From: a virus
Virus genome (UHGV): UHGV-1369436
DNA: 38,409 nucleotides
Reading direction: 5' to 3' (one strand)
Shown here: positions 1 to 38,379 of the stretch, piece after piece
How positions within the stretch are numbered: the stretch's first letter is position 1
How the letters are laid out: each line of letters starts with the position of its first letter
Made by a program: the position numbers and the translations under genes
Notes under the pieces: generated by a model
The model's database searches: none
What the model saw: only the letters and a program-made list of their open reading frames with translations
What the model was told of the DNA's origin: nothing

Positions 1-13
1 TTGCTAGGCTTAG

Positions 14-79
14 TATGCGCACGGGTGCGTAGGGGTATGCGCACGGGTGCGTAGGGGTATGCGCACGGGTGCGTAGGTA
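14..79. repeat. Three tandem copies (2.9x) of the 22-bp unit TATGCGCACGGGTGCGTAGGGG. Each unit contains a 5-bp inverted repeat (CGCAC-GG-GTGCG). An AT-rich stretch follows at 78-120. Putative iterons / origin or regulator-binding array.
   Basis: Direct repeats read in sequence at 14-35, 36-57 and 58-77. An (AT)n tract and A/T-rich DNA lie immediately 3'. The array sits upstream of the HTH replication-type genes. Confidence 0.8.
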
Positions 80-180
80 TATATATAGACAACATAAATT
101 AATAACATAACACTAACGCGCTCACTTCGTTCGCTTGTTGCGGCAAGCCGCGAATCGATAAAAAACACAACGAAAGACTC

Positions 181-209
181 TTGATTATGATTACTGTGTG
201 TGCTATTAT
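181..209 (+). promoter_or_regulatory. Sigma70-like promoter TTGATT-N17-TATTAT.
   Basis: The hexamers have exact 17-nt spacing. The promoter lies inside the first ATG-initiated ORF of the track (181), which argues for a later start codon. Confidence 0.45.
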
Positions 210-264
210 TAGAAGTACAGGCGGGTTGTTCAAAGCAAACAAGCATTTACGAGGACAACCACCG

Positions 265-687
265 ATGCCCGCCTATGCTCGGTGGTCGTGTCCTCGGGAC
301 ACGAAAGGAAATAGGAACATGAACCAAGAAGGGTACAAGCATGAAGTGCCAGCGTATCATCTGATGATGCTTTATCTTGCGGCATATAGTAGGGACATAG
401 AGCGAGCACAGGATGCTTTTAGAGTATATAAGTATCTAGTGGAGAGGCGTCGTGAACTTATCCCGGGCAAAGAAAAAGGCGTTATCTGTACATGGAAAGA
501 TGTTGCACGAGCATTGAAACTGGACACAAAAAGCGCTTTTCATGCTTTCAAAACACTAAGAGATTTGCGTTGGGTTACAAAAGAATATGTTGGAGGTAGT
601 CCAGTATATTACCGTGTCATATCACCAGATGAAACATTAGACATGGCAATTTTTATATTTGGCGGGGATATCAACAAATGGAGTTAG
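265..687 (+). CDS. Winged-helix/HTH DNA-binding protein. Alternative start at 319 (MNQEGYK).
   Basis: ORF track 181..687. C-terminal segment ...VICTWKDVARALKLDTKSAFHAFKTLRDLRWVTKE is HTH-like. The start was moved downstream of the promoter at 181-209. GAGGA lies 10 nt upstream of ATG 265. Confidence 0.45.
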   Translation: MPAYARWSCPRDTKGNRNMNQEGYKHEVPAYHLMMLYLAAYSRDIERAQDAFRVYKYLVERRRELIPGKEKGVICTWKDVARALKLDTKSAFHAFKTLRDLRWVTKEYVGGSPVYYRVISPDETLDMAIFIFGGDINKWS

Positions 688-1724
688 GAGATAAAAACCA
701 CCAGGCGGGCTGGACAGGCTACATAAATGCGGATGTACGATATGACAGGCGGCTGACTAATACAGCAAAGATAATAATGGTCGAAATATCAGCCCTTACT
801 AATATGAAGGGCTACGCGTGGTGCACTAATCAGTATCTCGCAGATGCATTTGATCTTTCAAGGTCGCAAGTATCACGTATTATTAGGAAGTTGGCAGAGT
901 GCGGCTACATCAATGTGTACCTTAACCCGGGCGGGGAGCGTTACATCACGATCACCAGCAATGACCGACCAGTACCTAGTGGTTTTAAAAAGGACTACAC
1001 GAAAAAAGCAGAGCCAGAGAACGAGCAAGACGATAAATTACTTAAAGTGGCTACCACTGTTGAAGAGGTTTTGCCAGAAGCAAAACCGATAGACATTAGC
1101 GAGACAGAATTGCGTGAACTTACCACAGCAGAGCAATGCGCCCTACAGACAAAAAATATCGAGGCCGACAACTACGACCGCCGCGGTGAGATTCTTGATA
1201 AGAATCTGTACGACAAGCTCAAGTTGGAGATTATTGCCGAATCAGATGCCACAGCCAAAGCAGAGGAGCAACCAGAGCAAGCTCCGGCAAAGCAAATCGA
1301 GGCCAGCGCACACCATAATGCTACCTCAACAGAGCTAGTAGCAGCATCAAATAACGCGCCAGAACAGCACAATACCCCATACGGTAAACTTGCAACACCC
1401 ATGACAAGTACGCGTAAGAACTATAACCCCGCTGAAAAGGCGTTTTATGACGCAGCAAAAGCCCTTGGGGTAAGTATTGCAAATCATAATCAAGCACGCA
1501 GCTGGGTTAAAGAAGTAGTAAGGACTAGAGGAATTGAGTCAACGGTAAACTACTTTGATTTTATGCGGCTCGTCTTCCCCAAATGGGAATATGAATATAA
1601 ACCAAACATTGACTCCGCACATGACCTTGCGATGAAAGCGGCTAAGATTGAGCAACTTATTCAAAGGCAGCAACGCGAGAATGCTCGTAAAATTAATTAC
1701 GACAATATTGACTTTTACGGCTAG
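678..1724 (+). CDS. Putative replication initiator / replisome organizer with an N-terminal HTH (…GYAWCTNQYLADAFDLSRSQVSRIIRKLAECGYI…).
   Basis: 348-aa ORF. The N-terminal helix-turn-helix resembles phage replication-initiation protein N-termini. The central region is acidic and low-complexity. It lies immediately after the iteron array. Confidence 0.5.
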   Translation: MELGDKNHQAGWTGYINADVRYDRRLTNTAKIIMVEISALTNMKGYAWCTNQYLADAFDLSRSQVSRIIRKLAECGYINVYLNPGGERYITITSNDRPVPSGFKKDYTKKAEPENEQDDKLLKVATTVEEVLPEAKPIDISETELRELTTAEQCALQTKNIEADNYDRRGEILDKNLYDKLKLEIIAESDATAKAEEQPEQAPAKQIEASAHHNATSTELVAASNNAPEQHNTPYGKLATPMTSTRKNYNPAEKAFYDAAKALGVSIANHNQARSWVKEVVRTRGIESTVNYFDFMRLVFPKWEYEYKPNIDSAHDLAMKAAKIEQLIQRQQRENARKINYDNIDFYG

Positions 1725-1736
1725 CAGCCTTACAAT
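1708..1736 (+). promoter_or_regulatory. Early promoter TTGACT-N17-TACAAT followed by the conserved leader AGAAACATAAGCAAAGAGAGGAGAA (1737-1770).
   Basis: Exact hexamers with 17-nt spacing. The leader matches five other copies in the window. Confidence 0.6.
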
Positions 1737-1770
1737 AGAAACATAAGCAAAGAGAGGAGAAAAATGCTTT

Positions 1771-2130
1771 ATGACAAAATATCAAATCACCACCTATGAT
1801 GGAACGGTACATACCATTGAGGGTAATACCCAACAAGAGGTGAAACGTATGGTTGAGTTTTTCAACCTTATGCCAGTAAAGATGGCAGATGGCACAACTG
1901 AAATGTTCGCCAAGGGCGCAGTGCAGCACATGAAAATGGTCAAGGATGATACTACACTCCCGCCAGAGCAACGCCTAGCCATGGGCGATCAGAAAGACAA
2001 CCGCAGCACAGGCCCAGAAGCTGAAGCAGCTAAAGCATGGCGAGAACACTGCGGTCACGACTTTAAGCTCATGGGGGATAAGGAAGCTCGCCAGCAATTC
2101 ATTGATAGCTATATGAGGAGCGACGCCTAA
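1771..2130 (+). CDS. Hypothetical protein (119 aa).
   Basis: ORF with SD AGAGGAGAA upstream. First gene behind the early promoter module. Confidence 0.7.
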   Translation: MTKYQITTYDGTVHTIEGNTQQEVKRMVEFFNLMPVKMADGTTEMFAKGAVQHMKMVKDDTTLPPEQRLAMGDQKDNRSTGPEAEAAKAWREHCGHDFKLMGDKEARQQFIDSYMRSDA

Positions 2131-2288
2131 TGGACAACCTACCACCAGTAACGGGCATCTCTAGTAGCGAGGCCGCCCTAGACGATCCAGACGACAAAGA
2201 CATATACGCAGAAACAAAAGTACGCCAGAAGCCACATACACCAGATGAAGACCTTGAGTCTATAGGAGCCCTAGAATATGAAGAATAG
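2130..2288 (+). CDS. Small, highly acidic hypothetical protein (52 aa; D/E-rich).
   Basis: ATG overlaps the upstream stop (TAATG). GAGGAG lies 10 nt upstream. Not on the ORF track because it is under 60 aa. Confidence 0.35.
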   Translation: MDNLPPVTGISSSEAALDDPDDKDIYAETKVRQKPHTPDEDLESIGALEYEE

Positions 2289-2496
2289 CCCACTAACTCG
2301 CGCTGAGCAACGTCTTGGCGCGAGAGTTGTATCATTAGCCATTCAAGCAAATCCAAGCTTACTTCGCACAATGTATTGTCACAAAAATGATCTAACCCTA
2401 TACCTCTGGCAAGATGACAAATGGATACCAGTTGGCCCTCATCTAAACGTTGTAAAAAAGACTCGAAAAAATCGTAAAAAAGTATTGCAATCGTAA
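2278..2496 (+). CDS. Hypothetical protein (72 aa).
   Basis: ORF track entry. Confidence 0.45.
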   Translation: MKNSPLTRAEQRLGARVVSLAIQANPSLLRTMYCHKNDLTLYLWQDDKWIPVGPHLNVVKKTRKNRKKVLQS

Positions 2497-2513
2497 GCAA
2501 CGAGGTGTATAGT
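2485..2513 (+). promoter_or_regulatory. Early promoter TTGCAA-N17-TATAGT plus conserved leader AGAAACATAACCAAAGGAAAGGAAGGAA.
   Basis: 17-nt spacing. The leader is similar to the other module copies. Confidence 0.5.
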
Positions 2514-2548
2514 AGAAACATAACCAAAGGAAAGGAAGGAACACAACA

Positions 2549-2701
2549 ATGGACAACGTAACTTACAAACTCGAGCAGATGGAAAACGAGGGCATGATCG
2601 AGCAGATGCACCACGACTGGTACGCATTTCGGATCAAGAACAGCTGGGCACGCAACATGAAGGCTCTCTGGCAGCGCTGGTTGATGAGTACAGTAAAATA
2701 A
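2549..2701 (+). CDS. Small hypothetical protein (50 aa).
   Basis: ATG at the end of the conserved leader with a GGAAGGAA SD. Under 60 aa, so absent from the track. Confidence 0.4.
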   Translation: MDNVTYKLEQMENEGMIEQMHHDWYAFRIKNSWARNMKALWQRWLMSTVK

Positions 2702-2751
2702 ACACACGAACACAATCAACAATAATGGTGGGCAGAAAGAGGAGAATAACA

Positions 2752-2931
2752 ATGTTCACTACAGCAATCGAAGGGTTACACGAAACCTACGAATACCGCC
2801 AGGCTAGCGTATTACGAAAACTATGGATGGATTTTATCACTACAGTATTCCTATCTGTACTATTCCTTAGCTTGCTATATTCGGTATATCTAGCTCTATC
2901 AGGACTAGTCTACCTAACAACGGGAGTTTAG
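2752..2931 (+). CDS. Small hydrophobic membrane protein (59 aa).
   Basis: Track ORF 2725..2931. Start moved to ATG 2752, which has AGAGGAG 8 nt upstream. The C-terminus is strongly hydrophobic. Confidence 0.55.
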   Translation: MFTTAIEGLHETYEYRQASVLRKLWMDFITTVFLSVLFLSLLYSVYLALSGLVYLTTGV

Positions 2932-3044
2932 TATGTTAGCAGATATTACATATCAATATCTAGAAAGCGATACAAAGGTAATTGAGGATATTATGGTTTA
3001 CAACGCACGAGAACGGATTATCCAATTAATTTTAGAGGAGAAGG

Positions 3045-3527
3045 ATGGAGAGAATCTATAGAGTGATAGCTATACGTCGCGACGGTGTGTGGCAGTATTG
3101 GGAACCGACACTGAGCCTATTCACATTCAAAGAAATACCAACAAATAGATACTACCAATACACAGAAGCACTCAGGGAATACCGAAGAGCGATAGACGAA
3201 TCAAGCCCTGATGATATATCGTGTGTTTCAATCAACGAGAAGATGGGTACCGATGGCACGTGGCACACACTCAAAGAGCGGCAATTTACCCAGAGTGAGC
3301 GATCAACAGAGTCAATCATGATAGATATTGGTACAGCTAGATTAAGCATGAAGACAACATCAGCAAAACTACGTGAGATTGCAGAATTGTCTAAACTCTC
3401 AAGAGAAACAAGGGAAGAGATTGAGCGTATTAGCAACAAGCTATACAGCCTCTCTCGACTCACATGGAATCTACAGAATAAAGTATTAAAGGAACTAGAG
3501 AATGATATACAAGACACAGAAGACTAA
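3045..3527 (+). CDS. Hypothetical protein (160 aa).
   Basis: ORF with SD GAGGAGAAGG. Confidence 0.65.
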   Translation: MERIYRVIAIRRDGVWQYWEPTLSLFTFKEIPTNRYYQYTEALREYRRAIDESSPDDISCVSINEKMGTDGTWHTLKERQFTQSERSTESIMIDIGTARLSMKTTSAKLREIAELSKLSRETREEIERISNKLYSLSRLTWNLQNKVLKELENDIQDTED

Positions 3528-3813
3528 ACAAGACCTACGAGAATCAGAAGAGACATTACAATTTGTCATGGCTGGTATCAAATGTCACCTTCCTAAAAAC
3601 CCAGCGACTCAAGTTATCCTTGAGCGCATAGAGAAAGACATTCGCCTATACGGAGACATTTGCAACATCGAAGGACGTGTTACAGAGTTTCTAGAGGAGG
3701 TAGGCGAGAATAAGCTCACCATGCTCCAGCGTGATTTTGATAACGTAAAATCAGGCAAAATGAGCTGTAAAGAAATTGCAAATAAAATCCGAAAAGAGTA
3801 TAATGAATGGTAG
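3502..3813 (+). CDS. Hypothetical protein (103 aa).
   Basis: ORF track entry. Overlaps the upstream gene. Confidence 0.55.
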   Translation: MIYKTQKTKQDLRESEETLQFVMAGIKCHLPKNPATQVILERIEKDIRLYGDICNIEGRVTEFLEEVGENKLTMLQRDFDNVKSGKMSCKEIANKIRKEYNEW

Positions 3814-3879
3814 ATGGAGGTAATACTTTCATAGCACATTTTGTAGCAGTGGTGTAGAATCTTTCTAACTACAACTATA

Positions 3880-4068
3880 GTATCTGTGCCTGGTTCCTCC
3901 TTGTTACGTGGTTAGGCACAGACACACAATACCTTTCTTCCCATGGAACAGTTTTCCCAGTTACCCGGCAAGACCACGAGACAACCCTCAACAATAGCAC
4001 GAAATGTGCTGTCTCGGTAACTGTGTTCCATGTAACACCCCACCATCTCCTCGGTGGGGTTTAACTTT
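3880..4068 (+). ncRNA. Candidate structured non-coding RNA or regulatory region ending in an intrinsic terminator.
   Basis: A 320-bp ORF-free gap. It contains a hairpin CTGTGCCT…AGGCACAG (3884-3921). Long-range complementary segments are present: CCATGGAACA at about 3950 with TGTTCCATG at about 4030, and AGCACATTT at about 3834 with AAATGTGCT at about 4008. A local hairpin AGCAC-GAAAT-GTGCT is also present. Confidence 0.25.
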
Positions 4069-4072
4069 GTCT
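4041..4072 (+). terminator. Rho-independent terminator CCCCACC-ATCTCCTC-GGTGGGG followed by TTTAACTTT.
   Basis: 7-bp GC stem, 8-nt loop and a U-rich tail, read directly. Confidence 0.6.
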
Positions 4073-4114
4073 ATACATGTTGTAAATTCTACCTGAGAAA
4101 ATAGCTAAAATCTA

Positions 4115-4143
4115 TTGCATCCCTCAACAATAAGATGTACAAT
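4115..4143 (+). promoter_or_regulatory. Early promoter TTGCAT-N17-TACAAT plus conserved leader ACAAACATAAACATAAGGCAAAGAGGAGAAG.
   Basis: 17-nt spacing. The -10 overlaps the ATG at 4135, which argues for the start at 4180. Confidence 0.55.
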
Positions 4144-4179
4144 ACAAACATAAACATAAGGCAAAGAGGAGAAGCCACA

Positions 4180-4443
4180 ATGTCAATCTACACACACTAC
4201 ACCATTGAAGCCACGACAAGGCTCGGAGAGGTATACGTATGGGATCCGCTCATCAGTGAGTATGAGTGCCAGAACAACCAGGAATCATCTGATATTAGCA
4301 CAGAGGACGAAGCTCTCGATGAATTTGGCTACGCAGTCGCAGCAGCAGACCTAGACGAGTTTATGAAAGTGAGTCTACTCCGTGTCACAGAGCTTAGCAA
4401 CGGCTCATCAGATGTATCAGTAGTAGAGTACAAGAATTTCTAG
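4180..4443 (+). CDS. Hypothetical acidic protein (87 aa).
   Basis: Track ORF 4135..4443. Start reassigned to ATG 4180, which has AGAGGAG 9 nt upstream and lies behind the promoter. Confidence 0.6.
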   Translation: MSIYTHYTIEATTRLGEVYVWDPLISEYECQNNQESSDISTEDEALDEFGYAVAAADLDEFMKVSLLRVTELSNGSSDVSVVEYKNF

Positions 4444-4451
4444 GAGGAGCG

Positions 4452-4676
4452 ATGCAAAACTGGAAAGTAAGAAAGAAACTCTATCAGGAGTCGTGGGAGC
4501 TAAAAGACATGAGGTACCGTCTCAACCTCCTCCGAGAGTTTGTAGACGACAAATACTACATCAACAACGCAACCGAATACCTCGACAAAGCCCTCAGCAA
4601 CATCGAGCTAGCAATGGATAGCAAGCAACTCAAGAAAGCATACGAACCACTAACCAAGCGAGAAAAGGAGAACTAA
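4452..4676 (+). CDS. Hypothetical protein (74 aa).
   Basis: SD AGGAGGAG 5 nt upstream. Confidence 0.65.
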   Translation: MQNWKVRKKLYQESWELKDMRYRLNLLREFVDDKYYINNATEYLDKALSNIELAMDSKQLKKAYEPLTKREKEN

Positions 4677-4678
4677 CA

Positions 4679-4846
4679 ATGTATCTATACACAATCGAGT
4701 ACAAAAGGCTCAGCCGAAGCCAAAAAGAGGAATATAAGACAGTAGCAGAAAATGCTCGTGTCGCACTCCGTAACCTCGAGCGTAATCGATGCAAACCATA
4801 CAGCTACCGTATCATCAACGTAGAGCGTGTAGGAGAGGATGACTAA
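4679..4846 (+). CDS. Small hypothetical protein (55 aa).
   Basis: SD AAGGAGAA upstream. Under 60 aa. Confidence 0.4.
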   Translation: MYLYTIEYKRLSRSQKEEYKTVAENARVALRNLERNRCKPYSYRIINVERVGEDD

Positions 4847-4847
4847 A

Positions 4848-5135
4848 ATGAAACCATACATGATCGTCTACCGCCGTAAAAGCATCAAAGGCACACTATC
4901 CCGCATAGTAAAAGCTAACAACCAAGACGAGGCAATCTACGCCTTAAAGCTGAAGTTCGACCCAGACGGCACAGAGAACCTATCAGTAAAAGATGTGCAT
5001 CTTCTAGATAAAGCACTCTCTGAACCATTCGTCACCCGACACACAGACGCCACCTCAAGCCTCGCTTTACATGATCAAGCCTACCAGCGCTACCGGCTCA
5101 TAAACAGACACCCAGGAAAAGGAGGAATAATCTAA
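4848..5135 (+). CDS. Hypothetical protein (95 aa).
   Basis: Track ORF 4839..5135. ATG 4848 has a better SD (AGGAGAGG). Confidence 0.6.
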   Translation: MKPYMIVYRRKSIKGTLSRIVKANNQDEAIYALKLKFDPDGTENLSVKDVHLLDKALSEPFVTRHTDATSSLALHDQAYQRYRLINRHPGKGGII

Positions 5136-5383
5136 TGTACCACTACCACCTACTCTACAAGCACAACCCTAGTGATAAATGGAGTATCTATACTACTACA
5201 GCATTAGATAATGGTACAGCTATCACTAATCTGCTAAAAGACAAAGAAGCAGTATATGACTATAGGATTATTAAACAAGAAAAGACAGAGAATAACGATA
5301 CCAATATAGCCCACAGTCTATTTAAACTATTCGTTTGGCTCTTTACTATAGCTATGGTGCTGTGGGTAGTACAGCAGAGATAG
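5135..5383 (+). CDS. Hypothetical protein with a C-terminal transmembrane helix (82 aa).
   Basis: SD AAAGGAGGAATAA. TAATG overlap with the upstream gene. Confidence 0.6.
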   Translation: MYHYHLLYKHNPSDKWSIYTTTALDNGTAITNLLKDKEAVYDYRIIKQEKTENNDTNIAHSLFKLFVWLFTIAMVLWVVQQR

Positions 5384-5469
5384 ACACAAACACACAAAAA
5401 CACACACTAGGAGAGGTTTGCGAGGCCTCTCCTCTTGTCATTCATAAGGGAAATGCTTATAATGAGTGC

Positions 5470-5946
5470 ATGGCTAAATCATCTTCTAGCAAGTCTGCAG
5501 ATAAGCTAGGCAGACCAAAAAGGAAATACAACGCTCCACCGGGCATGAATAACAACCCTACTGGCAAGGGCGGTTTTGGCGATAATCCACAAAACGGAGC
5601 GGGTGGTCGCTGGTCAAAAGACACCAGCATCTCGTACTGGTATAACAAGCTAGGCCGTATGACCCTCAAGGAGCTTGAAGAATTTGAGAAAAAGGGCGAT
5701 GAGCTTACTCCGTTCCAAAAGACAGCTCTCGTACGTGTTAAGCGCGCCTACAAGGGAGACTCTGAAGGCTTAGCAGAAGCTAAAGAGGTAGCAGACCGCA
5801 CAGAAGGCAAGGCCAAGCAGGATATATCTATCGACGCCAGCGATGATATGAAAACTATCATGAGAGGCTTTATTATACCAACACTACCAACGGATTGGAT
5901 CGATGAGCAAGTCGCATTGGCCCGTTCTAAACAAAGCAAAGTATGA
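5470..5946 (+). CDS. terS: Terminase small subunit (TerS). The track ORF begins at 5335; the likely start is MAKSSSSKSADKLGRPKRKY.
   Basis: Contains the motif GRPKRKYNAPPGMNNNPTGKGGFGDNPQNGAGGRWSKDT, characteristic of phage small terminase subunits. Lies immediately upstream of TerL. Confidence 0.6.
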   Translation: MAKSSSSKSADKLGRPKRKYNAPPGMNNNPTGKGGFGDNPQNGAGGRWSKDTSISYWYNKLGRMTLKELEEFEKKGDELTPFQKTALVRVKRAYKGDSEGLAEAKEVADRTEGKAKQDISIDASDDMKTIMRGFIIPTLPTDWIDEQVALARSKQSKV

Positions 5947-7504
5947 TGAGCTGCGAGAAAAGGGCTATTGGCTACCATTACCAGGCCCTCAGCAGCTCGC
6001 TATAGCGTTATCACGAGATAAGAGATTCCGTGAGATATTATTTGGTGGTTCTCGTGGTGGAGGCAAGACAGATGTGTCTATTGCTACTATTGGCGATCGC
6101 TTTGGCGACACTAGAGCCCGCCAGCTCGTCATTCGTAAAGACGCAGGAGACCTAGCGGACTTTGAGGAGCGTGCTGTAGCAGCTCTCCAGCCATTTGGAG
6201 CTAAGCTACGCCGCAATCCTATGGTGCTCTCCGCTAAAGGCTGTGGCCGTGTCATTGGTGGACACCTTCACGACGCTGAAGCTTACACAAAGTATCAAGG
6301 GCATGAGTACTGCCGTATCAATATCGAGGAGCTAACTCAGATACCAGACGAGGGACGTTATGAGAAGCTCATTAGCTCTGCTCGTAGCAAGTACAAAGAC
6401 CTATACCCTCAGGTATTCGCTACTACCAACCCAGGTGGCGCTGGCATGGGCTGGGTGAAGAAACGTTTCGTAGCACCAGACCCAGACAGGGCAGAAGTGC
6501 TCAAGATGGAGTATCCTTGGGTAGACATATACGGCAAGAAACAAGTCACACACTGGCAAATCGTTATAGATAAGCGTACAGGTATCTGGAGAGCCTATAT
6601 CCCAGCCACGATTGACTCTAACCCATTCTTGCTCGAGAATGACCCAGATTACGTGAAGTACCTCGACTCTCTCCAAGACTCAGACCCAGAGCTGTATCGT
6701 GCCTGGCGTTTTGGTGACTGGGACATTCAGTTTGGCGCTGTGTTTGAGGAGTTTCGGCAGAGTAAGCATACCTACGCCAAGTTCAGTGAGTGGGGTGTTA
6801 CAAAAGAAGCATTTGACAGCAATTACCGTGTCATGGGCATGGACTGGGGCTACAACGACGAGTGTGTACTACTGTGGGCTATGTTCGACAACATCACAGA
6901 GAAAGAGAACAGAGCGTTTATCTACCGTGAGCTACACGGTAACCACAAGCCTAAAGAGTGGTGGTGCGAGAGGATTGTGGAGATGTATCTCAAAGACCCG
7001 GTAGACTTGATAGCACTACCACATGACGCTTACAGCCACCTGGGAGGCTCTGAGACGATCGCTAAGGTGCTCAATGATACATTTGCCCGTCTTGCCCCAG
7101 ATGAGAAGCGTCCACGCATCGTACGGGCTGATAAGCTCATGAAAGATAGGAAACAGGCAGCAGTGCAGATGATTCACAGTGCTTTCGCTAACAAATCGGA
7201 TGGCAAACCTGGCCTGATATTCAGCAAATACTGCTCATACCTCATAGACACGCTACCTACCATCATCTACGCCAAGGAGTCTGGCGGTGAGGAGCTTGAC
7301 CCTAACAACGTAGACCACGCTCTAGACTCTCTCATGTACACGCTCATGACAGCCAACCGCGAGTATGGGTTCCTGGTGAATGAAGCAAAGAGAATCAACA
7401 AGCTCACCAAGCAGTCATTTACCATAAACCCAGGCGGCAGAGTAGAGGCAAAAGACATTGGAATTGATATTGCAACAGCGGTAGAGACAGATAAGCTCAC
7501 ATAA
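5903..7504 (+). CDS. terL: Terminase large subunit (ATPase plus nuclease).
   Basis: Walker A GGSRGGGKT and Walker B-like VIRKD/DE motifs. 533 aa. Positioned after TerS and before the portal. Confidence 0.8.
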   Translation: MSKSHWPVLNKAKYDELREKGYWLPLPGPQQLAIALSRDKRFREILFGGSRGGGKTDVSIATIGDRFGDTRARQLVIRKDAGDLADFEERAVAALQPFGAKLRRNPMVLSAKGCGRVIGGHLHDAEAYTKYQGHEYCRINIEELTQIPDEGRYEKLISSARSKYKDLYPQVFATTNPGGAGMGWVKKRFVAPDPDRAEVLKMEYPWVDIYGKKQVTHWQIVIDKRTGIWRAYIPATIDSNPFLLENDPDYVKYLDSLQDSDPELYRAWRFGDWDIQFGAVFEEFRQSKHTYAKFSEWGVTKEAFDSNYRVMGMDWGYNDECVLLWAMFDNITEKENRAFIYRELHGNHKPKEWWCERIVEMYLKDPVDLIALPHDAYSHLGGSETIAKVLNDTFARLAPDEKRPRIVRADKLMKDRKQAAVQMIHSAFANKSDGKPGLIFSKYCSYLIDTLPTIIYAKESGGEELDPNNVDHALDSLMYTLMTANREYGFLVNEAKRINKLTKQSFTINPGGRVEAKDIGIDIATAVETDKLT

Positions 7505-29315: not shown

Positions 29316-29594
29316 CTATTTCACGTCCTTCATAAAGTCTAACGGGTCTTTTTCTGTTTGCCCTGTCTCATCGCGCCATTGAGCATTGATAGTCACAGGA
29401 TCGGCGGCTTCAATGATGCCGCTATGTTTTTTGTCTTTGTTTTTATTTATGTATTGTTCCTCCGCGCCCGCGTATTTCTCCAGCCAGGAGAGGCCTGCCC
29501 GTCGTACCGTAGTAGGTACAACCGGGTCATGGCGGTTATTTAGCAAAGCGACTAGGAGGGCACAAATTGAGATGACAAGAGCTACAATATCCAT
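29316..29594 (-). CDS. Hypothetical protein with an N-terminal transmembrane helix (92 aa).
   Basis: MDIVALVISICALLVALL…. Confidence 0.5.
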   Translation of the reverse strand: MDIVALVISICALLVALLNNRHDPVVPTTVRRAGLSWLEKYAGAEEQYINKNKDKKHSGIIEAADPVTINAQWRDETGQTEKDPLDFMKDVK

Positions 29595-31072
29595 TATTCT
29601 TGATCCTTCTCAAATGGCAGAGCCACGTTAATCGATAGGAGCTGCGCAGCGACGCTGTGGCTATTTATGATTGCCTCCTCGATAGATTTAGCGCTATCTA
29701 CAATACCAGCCTCTAGAACGTCTGTGTGGTACGTCTCAGAATAAATATCGTAACCGGCCTTTGGTGTGTACGGCTTGTCCTCAGTCGTCTCCTTAGCCAT
29801 ACTACCTACAAGCATTGTGTATGGCTGTGTGAGGTAACTAGGCATATTAGTGGTGTCGCCTTCGTATACGTCGCGTAGGAACGTACCACCACCAGGGAGC
29901 ACTCCATAGTCTTTTGCAATCTGGGTAGCTGCTACAGCGTCCTCAATACGGAGCTTTAGCTCTTGCCGCTCAACCTGTGTAGCTGCACCAACGCTAATCT
30001 CAACAGTCTTACCATTCAAGGCATCACGCCGGTAATCGTCCTTGATACCTTCGATGTATTGATCCAGCTTCTCGCGGTTACCTGGGCCAGATAGGATTGT
30101 CTTTGTAGTGGTGATATGAGCGCGCTCAACCTTACCGATATTGGCATCTGTAAAGTCTGATACGCGTGGTGATACGAACACCTCAGCGCCAGCATAGGCT
30201 GCTACGTCACGAAGGAATAGCTCGCGTGCTTGACTCGATGGCTCTACTACGACAATGTTCAGTTTGCCGTTCATCTTATTGGTAGCGAGAGTCTCCAGGG
30301 CTTGGCCTGATACGTCTGCTACGAGTACGATGCTCTCTGCACCCGCCTTGAGAACTGCGTCGATAATAGGTACAATGTCATCGTTCTTGCTGATGATGCG
30401 AGACATGACAATAACGGTTGGGTTGTCGTATTTAGTCTGGATAGATTGCATATCGTCTGCGAAGGCAATGGACGACATACCTTTTTTAAATGTGAACCCT
30501 TGGACGATTTTACTCTCGATCTTATTCTCTGGTGTTTCTACCACTGTTACTGCGCCATTAGCACCAGCATCGTTAATAGCATCAAACACTAGATGGCCGA
30601 TAGCCTCATCACCTGATGACGTGTGTGCGACGCTATAGAGTAGCTCGTCTGTGGCTTTGATCTTAGTGTCTTTGATAGCCTTGATGATAGCCTTCTTATT
30701 TTGCTCAATCTGCTTTTGTACGGCTCGTGGCTTATCCTTCGCCATCTCCTTAAAGTAGTTATAGACGAGGTAGGTCATTACGATAGTAAGAGTTGTAGAG
30801 TCGCCAGCTGAACGGTTCGTTTTCTCGCTGGCCTGGCGTACAAGGGAGATTGCCATATTCTCTACTGGATCTGCTACTACGAGGCGGCCAATATTAGTAA
30901 TACCGTCATGAGATACGAGAGGCTCGCCGTAGCGGTGTTCGATCATGATATTACCAGAGTTTGCGCCATATGAGGAATATGCTACGTCGAAGGCCTTCTC
31001 AACGCCCATACTGATCTTTTTTTGTAGCTCATCACCACGTATTACATTACGTACTGAGGTTTGTTTAGGCAT
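29594..31072 (-). CDS. GroEL-like chaperonin (Cpn60 family, about 492 aa). It lacks the GGM tail.
   Basis: Alignable by eye to GroEL. AGDSTTLTIVM resembles AGDGTTTATVL. VGAATQVERQELKLRIEDAVAATQIAKDYGVLPGGG resembles [36 protein letters not shown]. C-terminal GIVDSAKSIEEAIINSHSVAAQLL resembles [23 protein letters not shown]. Start at ATG 31072, which has a GGAGGT SD. Confidence 0.7.
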   Translation of the reverse strand: MPKQTSVRNVIRGDELQKKISMGVEKAFDVAYSSYGANSGNIMIEHRYGEPLVSHDGITNIGRLVVADPVENMAISLVRQASEKTNRSAGDSTTLTIVMTYLVYNYFKEMAKDKPRAVQKQIEQNKKAIIKAIKDTKIKATDELLYSVAHTSSGDEAIGHLVFDAINDAGANGAVTVVETPENKIESKIVQGFTFKKGMSSIAFADDMQSIQTKYDNPTVIVMSRIISKNDDIVPIIDAVLKAGAESIVLVADVSGQALETLATNKMNGKLNIVVVEPSSQARELFLRDVAAYAGAEVFVSPRVSDFTDANIGKVERAHITTTKTILSGPGNREKLDQYIEGIKDDYRRDALNGKTVEISVGAATQVERQELKLRIEDAVAATQIAKDYGVLPGGGTFLRDVYEGDTTNMPSYLTQPYTMLVGSMAKETTEDKPYTPKAGYDIYSETYHTDVLEAGIVDSAKSIEEAIINSHSVAAQLLSINVALPFEKDQE

Positions 31073-31361
31073 CCAGTAAACCTCCATTTACAGCGTCTAC
31101 AGGGACAAAGATAAACATTTTACTGTCTACTTCAATCTCCTCACTGTCGTTATACTTCGTAAAATATATTTTGTTGCCAAGGAATTTCGAGAGTGTGTCC
31201 TCCTTGTCTGTAGACACACCAGAAGGGTGAATATATACAGCCTTTAGTGTGCCGCTCGTATGACTGCCGTGATCCCCTTGTGAGATAGACAGACTCGAGC
31301 CATATTTGTTAGTTACCTCTACCAGGCAAAACCCTGGCATGACGTGTAACTGTGTGCTCAT
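31065..31361 (-). CDS. GroES-like co-chaperonin (Cpn10 family, 98 aa).
   Basis: Mobile-loop-like SSLSISQGDHGSHTSGTLKAV resembles [22 protein letters not shown]. The C-terminal block …GNKIYFTKYNDSEEIEVDSKMFIFVPVDAV resembles …[35 protein letters not shown]. Lies directly upstream of and overlapping the GroEL-like gene. Confidence 0.6.
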   Translation of the reverse strand: MSTQLHVMPGFCLVEVTNKYGSSLSISQGDHGSHTSGTLKAVYIHPSGVSTDKEDTLSKFLGNKIYFTKYNDSEEIEVDSKMFIFVPVDAVNGGLLDA

Positions 31362-33975: not shown

Positions 33976-34387
33976 ACGCGGTTACGCCACGCTCTTTTAG
34001 TGAGTCGATAATGTCGTATGCCCTCGCCCCTCTATAGGCCTTGGCGGCCTTTTCGTTAACGGTCGCTGTTATCTCTTTATCGTTGATACGTAAGAGATAT
34101 AGCGCAGCACCTTTGATGCCAATTTTATACAGTGGCTCATCTCGCTTATCTAGTGGTGTTGATGCGTACCTATATAGTGTATCAAGCACGTACTTCCGAT
34201 GGTCTGGCGCTGTATCAGTTGTTACTCTCATGCTATATATCTCATCTACTCGCACACTACCAACACCCCAGCTTCCATCATATACGTTCACAAACGTACC
34301 ATAAGCCTCATTTTGTATGCGCGCTTGAAACCCAGCAGCTGCTAGCTCGTCGATCAACTCTAGTGTTGTTATATAGTTTTCACTCAT
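33944..34387 (-). CDS. Hypothetical protein (147 aa).
   Basis: ORF track entry. Confidence 0.55.
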   Translation of the reverse strand: MSENYITTLELIDELAAAGFQARIQNEAYGTFVNVYDGSWGVGSVRVDEIYSMRVTTDTAPDHRKYVLDTLYRYASTPLDKRDEPLYKIGIKGAALYLLRINDKEITATVNEKAAKAYRGARAYDIIDSLKERGVTAFAKEVKNATD

Positions 34388-34643
34388 ACATCGCCACCTT
34401 TGTTGCTAAGATACCCATACGCTCACGTGGTGTAAGCCCGCCTCGCATACCGTACTCTACATCTCCAGTCATCAGAGCATCTGCTAGGCACTCGCCTTTT
34501 ACTGGACACTCAGCACAAATCTTACGTGCATCGTTGTAGTTGTTGTACCCGTTATACTCATCAGCGTATGCTTTGTTGACCGGGAAAAACGCTTCCGGGT
34601 CTGTCTGTGCGCACAGTGCGCTGCCTCGCCATTTATTCTCCAT
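34380..34643 (-). CDS. whiB: WhiB-like (Wbl) 4-Cys Fe-S transcription factor.
   Basis: ALCAQTDPEAFFP…ARKICAECPVKGECLADAL…GGLTPRER. Compare the WhiB pattern C…DPE.FFP…C..CPV…CL..AL…GvWGG..e.ER. Confidence 0.7.
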   Translation of the reverse strand: MENKWRGSALCAQTDPEAFFPVNKAYADEYNGYNNYNDARKICAECPVKGECLADALMTGDVEYGMRGGLTPRERMGILATKVAMYE

Positions 34644-35330: not shown

Positions 35331-35358
35331 GAGTTTCTCCTCTCTATTGTTTATGTTT

Positions 35359-35387
35359 CTATTGTAACGCAAGCATTAGCTAAAGTC
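35359..35387 (-). promoter_or_regulatory. Early promoter (- strand) TTGACT-N17-TACAAT plus conserved leader AGAAACATAAACAATAGAGAGGAGAAACTC.
   Basis: Reverse complement read directly. Confidence 0.55.
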
Positions 35388-35688: not shown

Positions 35689-37650
35689 CTAGATATACAG
35701 GCCCTGTAGGCGCTGTAATGATTTTGCTGTTGGGTCGCTATAGAGTAGGTCACCCTTGCCAGTGAGAGCCTCAGCCCCTACCTCGTCTAGGATAATCTTA
35801 CTGTTGAGCGAGTTTGTGACACTAAAAGCGATCTTGGTTGGGATATTCGCCTTAATAAGCCCTGTCACAACGTCTGCTGATGGGCGCTGTGTTGCTAGTA
35901 TGAGGTGTATACCAACCGCCCGTGCTTTCTGCGCTAGTCTAATTATAGACTCCTCAGCAGAAGGCGGCGTGTTATCGTTGACGCGCTTCACGGCGGCTTT
36001 GAGTGCGGCCTTTGTGAGCTTACCACCTGTGAGCGTGACCTCGTCCAGGATAGCATCCTTAAGGCCTTCGTAGTCCACATTCGATAGTGGGTTTTTCTTG
36101 CTCGTCATCATAAGATCAGCAAACTCATCCACTACAACTACGATACGCGGCATCTCTCCTGGGTAGTCTGCAATGTCTCGGACGCGCTTCTCGCGTAGCT
36201 CCTTGTACCGTCTCCCCATCTCCTTTACGAGCCAGTGAAACGTCTCCGCCGCCTCCTTGGGTGAGGTGATAATATCGTTTGCAAGATGATCATCACCCTC
36301 GTACATAGCAAGCTCAACCTCTTTAGGATCGATGAGCACGAGCTTCATTTGCTCCGGTGTGAGCTGCTTCGTGAGACAGTCCAGGATTACGTTTATCATA
36401 ACAGACTTACCTGCGCCGGTCTGACCAGCGATCAAGAGGTGAGGTGTCTTTACAACGTCACAGTAGTGAACTTTACCGAAGGCGTCCATGCCGATAGGGA
36501 ATTTGAACGTGCCAGGATTAAGGCACTCATCTGTAAGAGGAACAACCTTACGATCTTTATTTGGTATTTCGATACCTACAAGGTTTGTACCTGCAATAGG
36601 GGCTTCGATACGTACAGACTCGCTCTCGAGGGCAATAGCAAGGTCGTTAGCCTTGTCTGCGATACGTTTCATACTCACGCCTCGGTTAGGCTGCATCGTG
36701 TACTTGATTACCTGCGGCCCGACGTATGTCTCACCCATCTTACCACCAATGCCAAACTCGATAAGCTTACGGAGGATCTTCTCCTCGTCTGTACCTGTGC
36801 CGTCATCGATGACAACGTTCTGTTGCTCAAAGGTATCAGCTACTCGTACTTGTCGCTTGATCTTGGCGGCGTCAAAGCCTTCTTGCTGGTTGGCGATAAT
36901 GTCCATGCTGTTCGCGCCGTTCATCCGATCGTTCATGTTGGGGAAGAACTTCGACCGGTCATCGTTTACATATTCAAATACGTTTGTGATGATTTTCTTT
37001 GCGATAGGTGCGAAAGCAAGGACAGATTGGCGATCAAAAGCAACGTCACGGCACTGTGGCGAACCATCCCGGTTGATCGTTTTCTTTATTTCTTTAAATA
37101 CTACCTCTGTTACTTTCTGATTATATTCCGCTTCTGCTAATACGAGGTAGATATAAGCTTGCATAAGGTACTTGTAACTCTCCTCGTCATCTGGGCTGTA
37201 AGCAGTAACTGTCTTGTAGTCGATAAGCCGTAGCCCATTGTCGCGCACCACCATGTCGATCACACCAACCATTGGCACGTTAGCGATACTCGCCTCGAGA
37301 CGTTTCTCAACATCTACTACCTCGTCGTAGTGTGGTGCTTCCTCAAAGTATTTATTTACGAGGCGAGTGTAGTCTTGCATCATCTTTTCACGGCTACCCG
37401 TCTTGCCAAAGTCAATCTCAGAGTCGCTTACATAGCTCATCTCCTCTAGGCCGGCCTCAATGGCAGCCTGCACGTCGCCACCGTCCTTACCGTAGAAGGT
37501 CTCCATAGCCTTGTGAAAGCTCGTACCTACTACTAGTGATGGTGTTTTAGGGTTATCGTAGATCTTTGCTATGTAGCGCTTCTGAAACTCAACTTGGTTA
37601 TTCAAGAACGTTACGATCGCTGAATACGACAGGTGGTTAACTCTACTCAT
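35689..37650 (-). CDS. Fusion protein. The N-terminal domain is a Cas4/RecB-like PD-(D/E)XK nuclease. The C-terminal domain is an FtsK/SpoIIIE-family ATPase.
   Basis: N-terminus: LSYSAI…GTSFHKAMETF…GVIDMVVRDNGLRLIDYKT…QAYIYLVL (SxS, GxxxH, D…DYK and QxxxY nuclease motifs). C-terminus: Walker A IAGQTGAGKS, Walker B VVVVDEFADL, and FtsK signature VGIHLILATQRPS. Start at ATG 37650, which has a GGAGAGGAG SD. Confidence 0.7.
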   Translation of the reverse strand: MSRVNHLSYSAIVTFLNNQVEFQKRYIAKIYDNPKTPSLVVGTSFHKAMETFYGKDGGDVQAAIEAGLEEMSYVSDSEIDFGKTGSREKMMQDYTRLVNKYFEEAPHYDEVVDVEKRLEASIANVPMVGVIDMVVRDNGLRLIDYKTVTAYSPDDEESYKYLMQAYIYLVLAEAEYNQKVTEVVFKEIKKTINRDGSPQCRDVAFDRQSVLAFAPIAKKIITNVFEYVNDDRSKFFPNMNDRMNGANSMDIIANQQEGFDAAKIKRQVRVADTFEQQNVVIDDGTGTDEEKILRKLIEFGIGGKMGETYVGPQVIKYTMQPNRGVSMKRIADKANDLAIALESESVRIEAPIAGTNLVGIEIPNKDRKVVPLTDECLNPGTFKFPIGMDAFGKVHYCDVVKTPHLLIAGQTGAGKSVMINVILDCLTKQLTPEQMKLVLIDPKEVELAMYEGDDHLANDIITSPKEAAETFHWLVKEMGRRYKELREKRVRDIADYPGEMPRIVVVVDEFADLMMTSKKNPLSNVDYEGLKDAILDEVTLTGGKLTKAALKAAVKRVNDNTPPSAEESIIRLAQKARAVGIHLILATQRPSADVVTGLIKANIPTKIAFSVTNSLNSKIILDEVGAEALTGKGDLLYSDPTAKSLQRLQGLYI

Positions 37651-38320
37651 CGTCGCTCTCCTCTCCATTATTAGCGTTAGCGGTTAGTTCTTCCTCTACG
37701 TAGATACCTGCAATGTCGAAGCCTGCACGTAGAGCGTTTGCCTCAGCACACTTAGTGAGCATCACTATAGGCATGGTTTTCCAGTTGCTTATCGGCTGAC
37801 CTTCACGGTTAGTGCGTACAAACTCATCGTAGTAGGCTGTATATCGTGTAACCTCGATTGGCGTACTCGTGTTGTCCCAGCGGCCAAATACAGGCACCGT
37901 GACGCTCAGGAGCTTATCGCCATCTTTCTTAACTTCTGCTGCACCTGTGTGAGTGTACACGCCACCCTTCCGCGCTAGCTTACGCAAACCGTGGATACTC
38001 ACGATTGGCATTAGCTCCTCGCCCCGTCGGTTCGAGTCCCAGATATATGTAGCGTAAATCTCCTTTTTAAACGGGTTCAGGCCGTACTGGTTGGCGATAG
38101 CCATAAATACCCGTAAGTCACCGATTGGACGCATCTCGCCCGTCTTGGTGAGCCCTAGGACGCTTTTATGCAAGGTGGCGATCAAGCTCAGCGTCTGCTT
38201 TTCATTCTCAGCGTTGCTGATCATACCCTTAGCGAGTGGGACGACAGGCTCATACTGGTTTTTCAGCGCAAGCTGCATAGCCCTCTTCTCGTCACGTTTT
38301 GTAATTTCTTGCTGTGTCAT
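37643..38320 (-). CDS. recT: RecT-family single-strand annealing protein.
   Basis: C-terminal MLTKCAEANALRAGFDIAGIYVEEE matches the RecT signature. Start at ATG 38320 behind the conserved leader (the track extends to 38362). Confidence 0.65.
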   Translation of the reverse strand: MTQQEITKRDEKRAMQLALKNQYEPVVPLAKGMISNAENEKQTLSLIATLHKSVLGLTKTGEMRPIGDLRVFMAIANQYGLNPFKKEIYATYIWDSNRRGEELMPIVSIHGLRKLARKGGVYTHTGAAEVKKDGDKLLSVTVPVFGRWDNTSTPIEVTRYTAYYDEFVRTNREGQPISNWKTMPIVMLTKCAEANALRAGFDIAGIYVEEELTANANNGEESDDE

Positions 38321-38350
38321 GCAAGTTCTCCTCTCTTTGCTTATGATTCT

Positions 38351-38379
38351 ATTGTAGCTCATATGGCAAGCAAAAGCAA
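38351..38379 (-). promoter_or_regulatory. Early promoter (- strand) TTGCTT-N17-TACAAT plus conserved leader AGAATCATAAGCAAAGAGAGGAGAACTTGC.
   Basis: Reverse complement read directly. Confidence 0.55.

Follow-up and report, generated by a model that had tools for sequence, protein, structure and literature searches.

Organization of the Intergenic Region

We analyzed UHGV-1369436, a virus genome given as one strand of 38,409 nucleotides (this whole stretch is hereafter called the window), and addressed the putative iteron-type replication origin that an initial annotation, made from the sequence alone, had placed at the window ends. The region begins with a short array of tandem repeats, which is followed by an AT-rich tract, a conserved box, and a GC dyad. 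When the window ends are joined, these elements lie between two divergent early promoters, and all genes are transcribed away from the array region. The rightward operon carries a small open reading frame (ORF) and the gene of an initiator-like protein, and the leftward operon starts with a gene for a RecT-family annealing protein (table 1).

Table 1.— Positions of the elements and genes discussed in the text (window coordinates; L numbers denote related loci)
Feature	Position	Strand	Sequence or description
Three tandem 22-bp repeats, putative iterons	13..78	.	GTATGCGCACGGGTGCGTAGGG x2 + GTATGCGCACGGGTGCGTAGGT
AT-rich tract, putative DNA unwinding element	78..111	.	(TA)5, then A-rich AACATAA-type 13-mer-like repeats; from stability and composition
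Invariant 29-nt box	112..140	.	ACTAACGCGCTCACTTCGTTCGCTTGTTG; GC-richer segment; from identity across relatives
Short GC dyad	140..151	.	GCGGC-AA-GCCGC; symmetry conserved in relatives
A-run after the GC dyad	160-167		May be UP element of the rightward promoter
Rightward early promoter, sigma-70-like	181..209	+	TTGATT, 17 nt, TATTAT, extended -10 TG; conserved in L001, L002, L004, L005, L010
Structured leader RNA of the rightward early operon	217..318	+	~100 nt; fold conserved in relatives
Small exchangeable ORF	319..687	+	122 aa; no family match
Initiator-like protein	678..1724	+	348 aa; winged helix ~18-92 (HTH_36), disordered linker, C-terminal helical part common to all classes
-10/leader/ribosome-binding-site unit	1731-1761, 2508-2536, 4138-4159	+	TACAATAGAAACATAAGCAAAGAGAGGAGAA
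-10/leader/ribosome-binding-site unit	35338-35371, 38326-38361	-	TACAATAGAAACATAAGCAAAGAGAGGAGAA
Cpn60/GroEL-like chaperonin	29594-31087	-
WhiB-like transcription factor	34380-34643	-	Pfam E = 7e-19
Nuclease-translocase fusion	35689-37668	-	659 aa; N-terminal PD-(D/E)XK (Cas4/RecB-like) nuclease and FtsK/SpoIIIE-type DNA translocase ATPase
RecT-family annealing protein	37643..38320	-	First gene of the leftward operon; Pfam E = 1.8e-18
Leftward early promoter	38351..38379	-	TTGCTT (38379-38374), 17 nt, TACAAT (38356-38351); read from sequence

The Repeat Array and the AT-Rich Tract

Tandem Repeats Finder, run on the window, reported positions 13-77 with a period of 22, 3.0 copies, and 100% matches. 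A pattern search with the 22-mer resolved two exact copies (13-34 and 35-56) and a third (57-78) with a single mismatch, at its last base. The 22-mer was confined to the array, as no other site in the 38,409 bases matched it at up to three mismatches and 100 shuffles yielded 0 matches. Exact repeats of this kind, restricted to a single site of the genome, are not expected by chance. Read from the sequence, every 22-bp unit contains a 5-bp inverted repeat (CGCAC-GG-GTGCG); in addition, each unit holds the half-sites TGCGCA and TGCGTA, 10 bp apart, and successive units are separated by about two helical turns. The array shows the pattern by which iterons are recognized, that is, at least two tandem direct repeats of ~17-22 bp in helical phase.

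The array runs straight into the AT-rich tract, which in the window occupies the place of the unwinding element of an iteron origin. In particular, no other 33-mer of the 38.4-kb genome is as unstable as TATATATATAGACAACATAAATTAATAACATAA (78-110), which has a nearest-neighbor free energy of -30.5 kcal/mol versus a mean of -44.2 (standard deviation 3.5), and the A+T content at 79-111 is 85%. The 13-mer AACATAAATTAAT is present 2.5 times in L006, L007, L011, and L012. We also noted a C-poor 12-mer, AGGATTGGATAT, in 4-5 copies in L014, L015, L017, and L025-L029 (about 4896-4993) and in L045 (2094-2146). A minus-strand ORF of 78 aa that spans the region (10-246) was rejected as a gene, since relatives carry unrelated repeats there together with indels not divisible by 3, one of them a 13-bp duplication in L006.

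Most of the local anatomy given in the initial annotation was confirmed. The three 22-bp repeats with their internal 5-bp inverted repeat are present, at 13-78 rather than at 14-79, and are followed by AT-rich DNA as described. The GC hairpin listed at about 143-160 is a real dyad, which had been placed imprecisely and lies at 140-151. The array was said to stand directly upstream of helix-turn-helix (HTH) initiator-like genes; of these, the gene at 678-1724 is initiator-like, whereas the first gene (319-687) is not.

Repeat Classes Match the N-Terminal Classes of the Initiator-like Protein

About 30 related phage contigs of 33-40 kb were compared, from which 28 loci and the window formed an informative set of 29 genomes. 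An array with a period of 21-23 bp and 2-7 copies occupied the same place between the leftward and rightward promoters in 29/29 genomes, and in all 29 the repeat class matched the N-terminal class of the initiator-like protein. Class 1 comprises the window and L001-L012, with units GTATGCGCAC..GTGCGTAGGG and the N-terminus MELGDKNHQAGWTGY...; class 2 (L014, L015, L017, L025, L026, L028, and L029) has the unit ATAAACGGGGGGTTTAT and the N-terminus MLKSINIDLF...; class 3 (L016, L023, L024, and L027) has the unit TAGGGTAAGTTTGGGGACTATA and the N-terminus ...FYRNGYQPMIG...; and class 4 (L013 and L018-L021) has the unit TATAGGGCCAGCAGTGGCCC and the N-terminus MESNNKYIRFYRTTY.... L030 encodes a class-2 N-terminus, but its contig begins past the array. 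To test this pairing, a fifth N-terminal type (P0094) was selected by protein search while its DNA was still unseen; as predicted, its contig carried a new 21-bp repeat in two copies, GGGGGGTGTTACGTACATAAC, at the same place. Five mutually unrelated repeat sequences were thereby paired one-to-one with five types of initiator N-terminal domain.

Within class 1, the unit followed the consensus GTAT-R-CGC-A-NNNN-TGCG-Y-AGGG, with a spacing of 22 bp in 12 relatives and of 23 bp in L005. Positions 1-8 and 14-20 were fixed and the center was variable, while the dyad was kept or improved (TACGCAT-AA-ATGCGTA in L005 and L010). Dyads were also present in other classes: GGGCCA-N4-TGGCCC in class 4 and ATAAA-N7-TTTAT in class 2.

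The C-terminal ~200-235 residues of the protein are common to all classes, at 50-79% identity, a pattern that agrees with a domain for DNA specificity joined to one effector domain held in common. The small ORF at 319-687 behaved differently: it was replaced in L004, L005, L010, L007, and L011 and was absent in classes 2-5, the repeat class of the former being unchanged. The small gene is the only other one within the exchanged segment, and since it is swapped or missing without a change of class, the N-terminal domain of the initiator-like protein is the one coding sequence that accompanies the array in every case. The product of 319-687, which swaps independently of the repeat class, was ruled out as the repeat binder.

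Features of the Initiator-like Protein

Pfam assigned the N-terminus of the 678-1724 product to HTH_36 (E = 2.4e-9). The best PHROG match was to a replication initiation protein (E = 2e-16), together with DnaD-like families and O-like families, the latter weak (E = 7e-6 to 3e-4). The array is accompanied by a linked initiator-like gene, as is usual in iteron origins, with homology confined to the N-terminal domain. A sequence search of the PDB with the protein gave no match. The AlphaFold model had a predicted local distance difference test score of 75-86 in the winged helix and a mean of 57.8 overall, and on this model the structure-based family assignment is uninformative beyond "winged helix." The protein search returned more than 100 variants on contigs of 33-40 kb. 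As a separate observation, homologues were mosaic beyond the N-terminal swap: the middle segment (around residues 150-195) and the C-terminal end each came in two alternative versions, which were combined in various ways.

The Invariant Box and the GC Dyad

The box at 112-140 was identical in L014, L015, L017, L025, L026, L028, L029, L030, and L045, despite different repeats, initiator N-terminal domain, promoter, and leader. It was thus shared without change across classes 1, 2, and 5, while the class-1 relatives L006-L012 carried a diverged form. Among 185,579 species genomes, the box was found only on phage-size or short contigs and in three high-GC genomes (L039-L041), the latter number being about what chance would give by our own estimate. 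It corresponds to no known motif. The box was rejected as an attP core, since no copy was found in a host chromosome among these species genomes and no integrase was found among the ~46 ORFs scanned.

The dyad that follows the box stood at a constant distance from it, and its symmetry was held with six different arm sequences, among them arms of 5-6 bp such as GCGGC/GCCGC, CGCGGC/GCCGCG, GGCGAC/GTCGCC, GCCGGC/GCCGGC, and GCCGG/CCGGC. As a single-stranded hairpin, the dyad of the window was of ordinary stability (z = -0.1), so that its weight comes from conservation in relatives only. With this ordinary stability and with no T-run after it on either strand, it was also dismissed as an intrinsic terminator in the window. 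In classes 3 and 4 (L013, L016, L018-L021, L023, and L027), another element was present, a pair of hairpins with a T-run after the second one (GCCAGC/GCTGGC).

The box may bind a host factor, act as a signal for priming or loading, specify a small RNA, or serve as a conserved linker that aids module exchange. Tentatively, and with considerable doubt, we suggest that the box and the compensated dyad form a separate origin component, independent of initiator specificity, which would act as a loading or priming signal for the host replisome or as the template of a primer or regulatory RNA. If so, this component would be common to phages with unrelated iterons and unrelated initiator DNA-binding domains, and, combined with one iteron-initiator pair, it would define a small, portable replicon whose host group is probably Saccharibacteria.

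The Window Is a Closed Circular Genome

The last and first 1,500 bases of the window were joined and used as a test sequence. The joint aligned colinearly to the 90% identical contig L002 over 2,999 of 3,000 bases, and L003 and L008 also aligned across it. Two contigs of other assemblies, L047, from a human oral metagenome, and L046, encode an identical initiator protein, and both match the joint at every base (...CAAACCGGCCG|TTGCTAGGCTTAGTATGCGC...); the relatives L001 and L002 (90-92% identical) were also continuous there. Independent assemblies join the two ends exactly, from which it follows that the window represents a closed circular genome. These assemblies also ruled out that the ends are physical termini or the edge of a longer array.

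Behind the joint, three units were counted in L047, L001, and L002 and two in L046. L046 is otherwise the same sequence as L047 and the window and differs by exactly one 22-bp unit, which is either real copy-number variation or an assembly collapse of the repeat.

The related contigs of 33-40 kb were opened at many different points. The relatives L013 and L018-L021 were more than 90% identical to the window up to 11 nt before its end and then diverged, which places a mosaic breakpoint at the opening point; two further assemblies, L006 and L030, break in or at the array. As the opening point coincides with a mosaic breakpoint and adjoins a tandem repeat, we infer that the window ends are break points of the assembly graph rather than physical termini.

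The initial annotation had taken the window for a probable whole genome opened at this point, and the continuity of L047, L046, L001, and L002 agrees with this. The RecT early promoter that it placed at the other window end, firing in the opposite direction, was likewise recovered (TTGCTT-17-TACAAT on the minus strand). It had named flanking bacterial genes as the sign of a prophage; no relative was located inside a bacterial contig, and the longest contigs were phage-sized. In contrast, the further iterons suspected across the junction do not exist; the array begins 12 nt after the joint.

An Iteron-Type Origin Is the Most Probable Explanation

Taken together, these data led us to propose that positions 13-151 and the gene at 678-1724 constitute the iteron-type origin module of a circular ~38.4-kb human-mouth phage genome, a reading to which we assign a probability of roughly 70%. 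Repeat binding and origin activity are predicted here from comparative sequence data. The conserved position of the array, its 21-23-bp spacing, the least stable tract beside it, and the match between repeat class and N-terminal class all support the iteron origin at a divergent promoter junction that had been annotated initially. Our confidence is limited because the co-variation amounts to about five linked exchange events and because the protein-family evidence concerns a generic winged helix.

An alternative that we regard as unlikely is that the array is a transcription control site and that the HTH_36 protein is an activator or repressor that balances the two divergent early promoters, with no role in initiation. 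The array does lie between the two promoters, yet it overlaps neither: 42 bp separate its start from the leftward -35, and its end is 102 bp upstream of the rightward -35; half-sites like those of the unit, as in a repressor operator, were absent from both promoters, and no second control array was found in the window by pattern search with the 22-mer. The only significant domain of the protein is a generic winged helix, for which the MarR, IclR, and Crp families gave matches as well. By structure, the protein comes closest to transcription regulators, and JGI annotators named its homologues transcriptional regulators; however, its strongest family matches are to phage replication initiators, DnaD-like and O-like, and a C-terminal part of ~235 residues conserved across specificity classes would be unusual in a simple regulator. 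The co-variation itself would suit any cognate pair of protein and site, whereas the easily melted or repeat-rich tract that always adjoins the array speaks for an origin, as does the fact that no other candidate initiator or origin was found in the genome.

It is very improbable that another phage protein binds the array, either as a centromere-like partition site or for packaging (pac/cos recognition). Centromeres of the ParR and ParB types do contain tandem repeats with dyads, and, with no integrated copy seen, the phage could live as an episome; nevertheless, no ParA, ParB, ParM, or ParR family was present among the ~46 ORFs scanned, a set from which some small ORFs were left out. Polymerase, helicase, primase, and integrase genes were also not found in this set. 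Such repeats are also known from sites of terminase small subunits, but the terminase genes are 5-7 kb away and are common to the repeat classes, while the repeats vary in step with the N-terminal domain of the initiator. Breaks in or beside the array occur in three assemblies (the window, L006, and L030). However, assemblies of the same phage are continuous across the joint, and the 380-nt terminal direct repeat of one relative (379/380 identical) lies ~3 kb into the rightward operon and not at the array; the breaks are thus best explained by the tandem repeats together with the mosaic breakpoint.

That the array is a nonfunctional, fast-evolving minisatellite or an assembly artifact is scarcely credible: copy numbers do range from 2 to 7 and differ (2 versus 3) between assemblies of the same phage, but the position is the same in all informative genomes, which come from many samples and assemblers, the unit length stays at 21-23 bp while the sequence changes completely, and each class keeps its internal dyad and fixed outer positions.

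Several observations weigh against the iteron-type origin. No DnaA box (TTATCCACA at up to one mismatch) was found up to 5 kb from the array; such boxes are common in plasmid origins, though not obligatory. In classes 2 and 5, the 12-mer repeat described above takes the place of the tract and is less AT-rich; it may be a different type of unwinding or binding element. The co-variation represents approximately five independent module exchanges, and part of it could be due to simple linkage, since just 250-650 bp separate the array from the N-terminal coding region. The family matches of the protein cover only the generic winged-helix domain, and no NCBIfam model matched the protein. Foldseek searches with the model gave E values of 0.012 or higher, in which the RepA_N initiators of plasmids were weak (E about 0.04-0.1) and ranked no better than MarR-type regulators. 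The GC skew has its maximum at the convergent gene boundary (29,188) and a broad minimum from the joint to about 10 kb; with gene orientation as a confounding factor, it is compatible with an origin but not decisive for its position. Finally, no comparable tandem array occurs anywhere in the genome of the closest named phage, DolZOral124_53_65.

On the preferred reading of an iteron-type origin, we propose the following mechanism. The rightward early promoter would drive expression of the initiator, whose N-terminal winged helix, probably as a dimer, would bind each 22-bp repeat through the two TGCG(C/T)A half-sites. With half-sites one helical turn apart and units about two turns apart, the bound protein would all lie on one face of the DNA. 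The resulting nucleoprotein complex could melt 78-111, helped by negative supercoiling between the divergent early promoters, and the C-terminal part that is common to all specificity classes might then recruit the host helicase and replisome. RecT, the PD-(D/E)XK nuclease of the leftward operon, and a resolvase-like nuclease on the same arm may support a later, recombination-dependent phase of replication, by analogy with lambda Red and SPP1. If this is true, both the origin and its specificity determinant have been located for a large family of uncultured human-oral phages. Five initiator DNA-binding domains and five repeats on a common C-terminal scaffold would amount to a natural experiment, from which specificity swaps are easily designed.

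Promoters, Leader RNA, and a Recurrent Early Unit

In the leader RNA of the rightward operon, a 5' arm at 219-225 pairs with 267-273 to form a pseudoknot, 251-264 and 280-295 make up a long hairpin, and 288-302 can fold into an alternative hairpin. In the pseudoknot, the 5' arm AGGCGGG pairs with the loop of the long hairpin, and the base of the long hairpin competes with the hairpin 288-302, which lies directly before the ribosome-binding site. When the fold was applied to 7 sequences, 96% of the cells were paired, and 6 two-sided pair changes were counted versus 2.9 in shuffles. A possible function of this leader is that of a switch regulating the replication genes. Searched at gathering thresholds, Rfam gave no match for 217-318, and neither Rfam nor a scan for tRNA and tmRNA found anything in the whole window.

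On the other arm, the leader of the leftward promoter, TACAATAGAAWCATAAGCAAAGAGAGGAGAA, recurs at 1731, 2508, and 4138 on the plus strand and at 35347 on the minus strand (repeat families D4, D20, I1, I4, and I6). A unit of ~30 nt, made up of a -10 box, a leader, and a ribosome-binding site, stands before at least five early genes on both arms (table 1), which suggests a common cassette of early promoter and leader.

Neighboring Genes and the Probable Host

The RecT gene likely starts at the ATG at 38320, which is preceded by a GGAGAA ribosome-binding site; gene callers predicted 225 aa in L045 and L046. The nuclease-ATPase fusion encoded directly downstream of it is an unusual partner for a RecT recombinase, and a resolvase-like nuclease is also encoded on the leftward arm. 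The WhiB-like family, which is represented on the same arm, is typical of Actinomycetota and their phages. A nucleotide search with window positions 1-6000 against 50,697 phage records gave no match.

The closest named phage and the labels of bins of metagenome-assembled genomes (MAGs) point to Saccharibacteria (TM7) as the probable host. Related contigs were, however, binned both with Saccharibacteria and with Atopobium MAGs. To our knowledge, no replicating vector exists for Saccharibacteria. Where plasmid tools are so far missing, the ~1.8-kb fragment with origin and initiator would be a candidate for a minimal replicon.

Comparison with Known Systems

The closest named phage is the TM7 phage DolZOral124_53_65 (MG269973), which is circular, has a size of 38.8 kb, and shares a terminase large subunit of 61% identity; it likewise encodes a Cpn60-like chaperonin and an exonuclease. 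The two genomes have no nucleotide similarity, and of the 79 phage records that matched the initiator, the best 12 did not include this phage. A survey of Saccharibacteria phages (mBio 2023) does not mention origins, and our literature search found no paper that links iterons with Saccharibacteria.

At the protein level, initiators of Firmicutes phages (Lactobacillus J-1, PL-1, and c5; Staphylococcus) were 31-38% identical over the N-terminal ~120 residues and belong to the same PHROG families. The likeness to these HTH_36/DnaD-like initiators is limited to the N-terminal domain, whereas the C-terminal two-thirds are specific to the phage family described here. Where origins of such phages have been described, their usual location is inside the initiator gene or downstream of it.

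The replicons R6K, pPS10, pSC101, RK2, F, and P1 (oriR) resemble the present module in having a few phased direct repeats of 17-22 bp beside an unwinding element of the 13-mer type and a rep gene; in RK2, a GC-rich segment lies beyond the AT tract, as it does here. In plasmids, the typical iteron is asymmetric and is bound by a Rep monomer that has two winged helices, whereas the units of the window are dyads and the model of its initiator shows one winged helix. Unlike the plasmid origins, the module has no DnaA boxes, no iteron-like operator over the rep promoter, and no second control array. Iteron plasmids carry 3-7 iterons of 17-22 bp and an unwinding element with 13-mers (PMC4980987); the three 22-bp units of the window fall inside both ranges.

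The closest functional analogue is the origin of lambda. In both systems, tandem initiator sites (putative in the window), each an imperfect inverted repeat, stand beside a meltable AT-rich tract with early transcription nearby, and a further dyad, in lambda a palindrome, lies beyond this tract. The N-terminal part of lambda O sets origin specificity, and its C-terminal part contacts the helicase-loading machinery. The lambda iteron is a 19-bp imperfect inverted repeat that adjoins an AT-rich tract, and two iterons and the tract suffice for unwinding (PMC7466680). Lambda has four units of 19 bp, compared with three of 22 bp here, and its origin lies inside the initiator gene, whereas the array described here is in intergenic DNA, 600 bp upstream of the initiator start codon. 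The 678-1724 protein had no match to Pfam Phage_rep_O at E <= 0.01, and no P-like helicase loader was recognized downstream of its gene, where the ORFs had no family match. For these reasons, that is, the site outside the gene and the failure to recognize either lambda-type protein, the array and initiator are outside the lambda family in the strict sense. The combination of iterons, AT tract, and winged-helix initiator is a textbook design, which is new only for this uncultured human-mouth phage family, and the result thus extends known biology rather than changing it.

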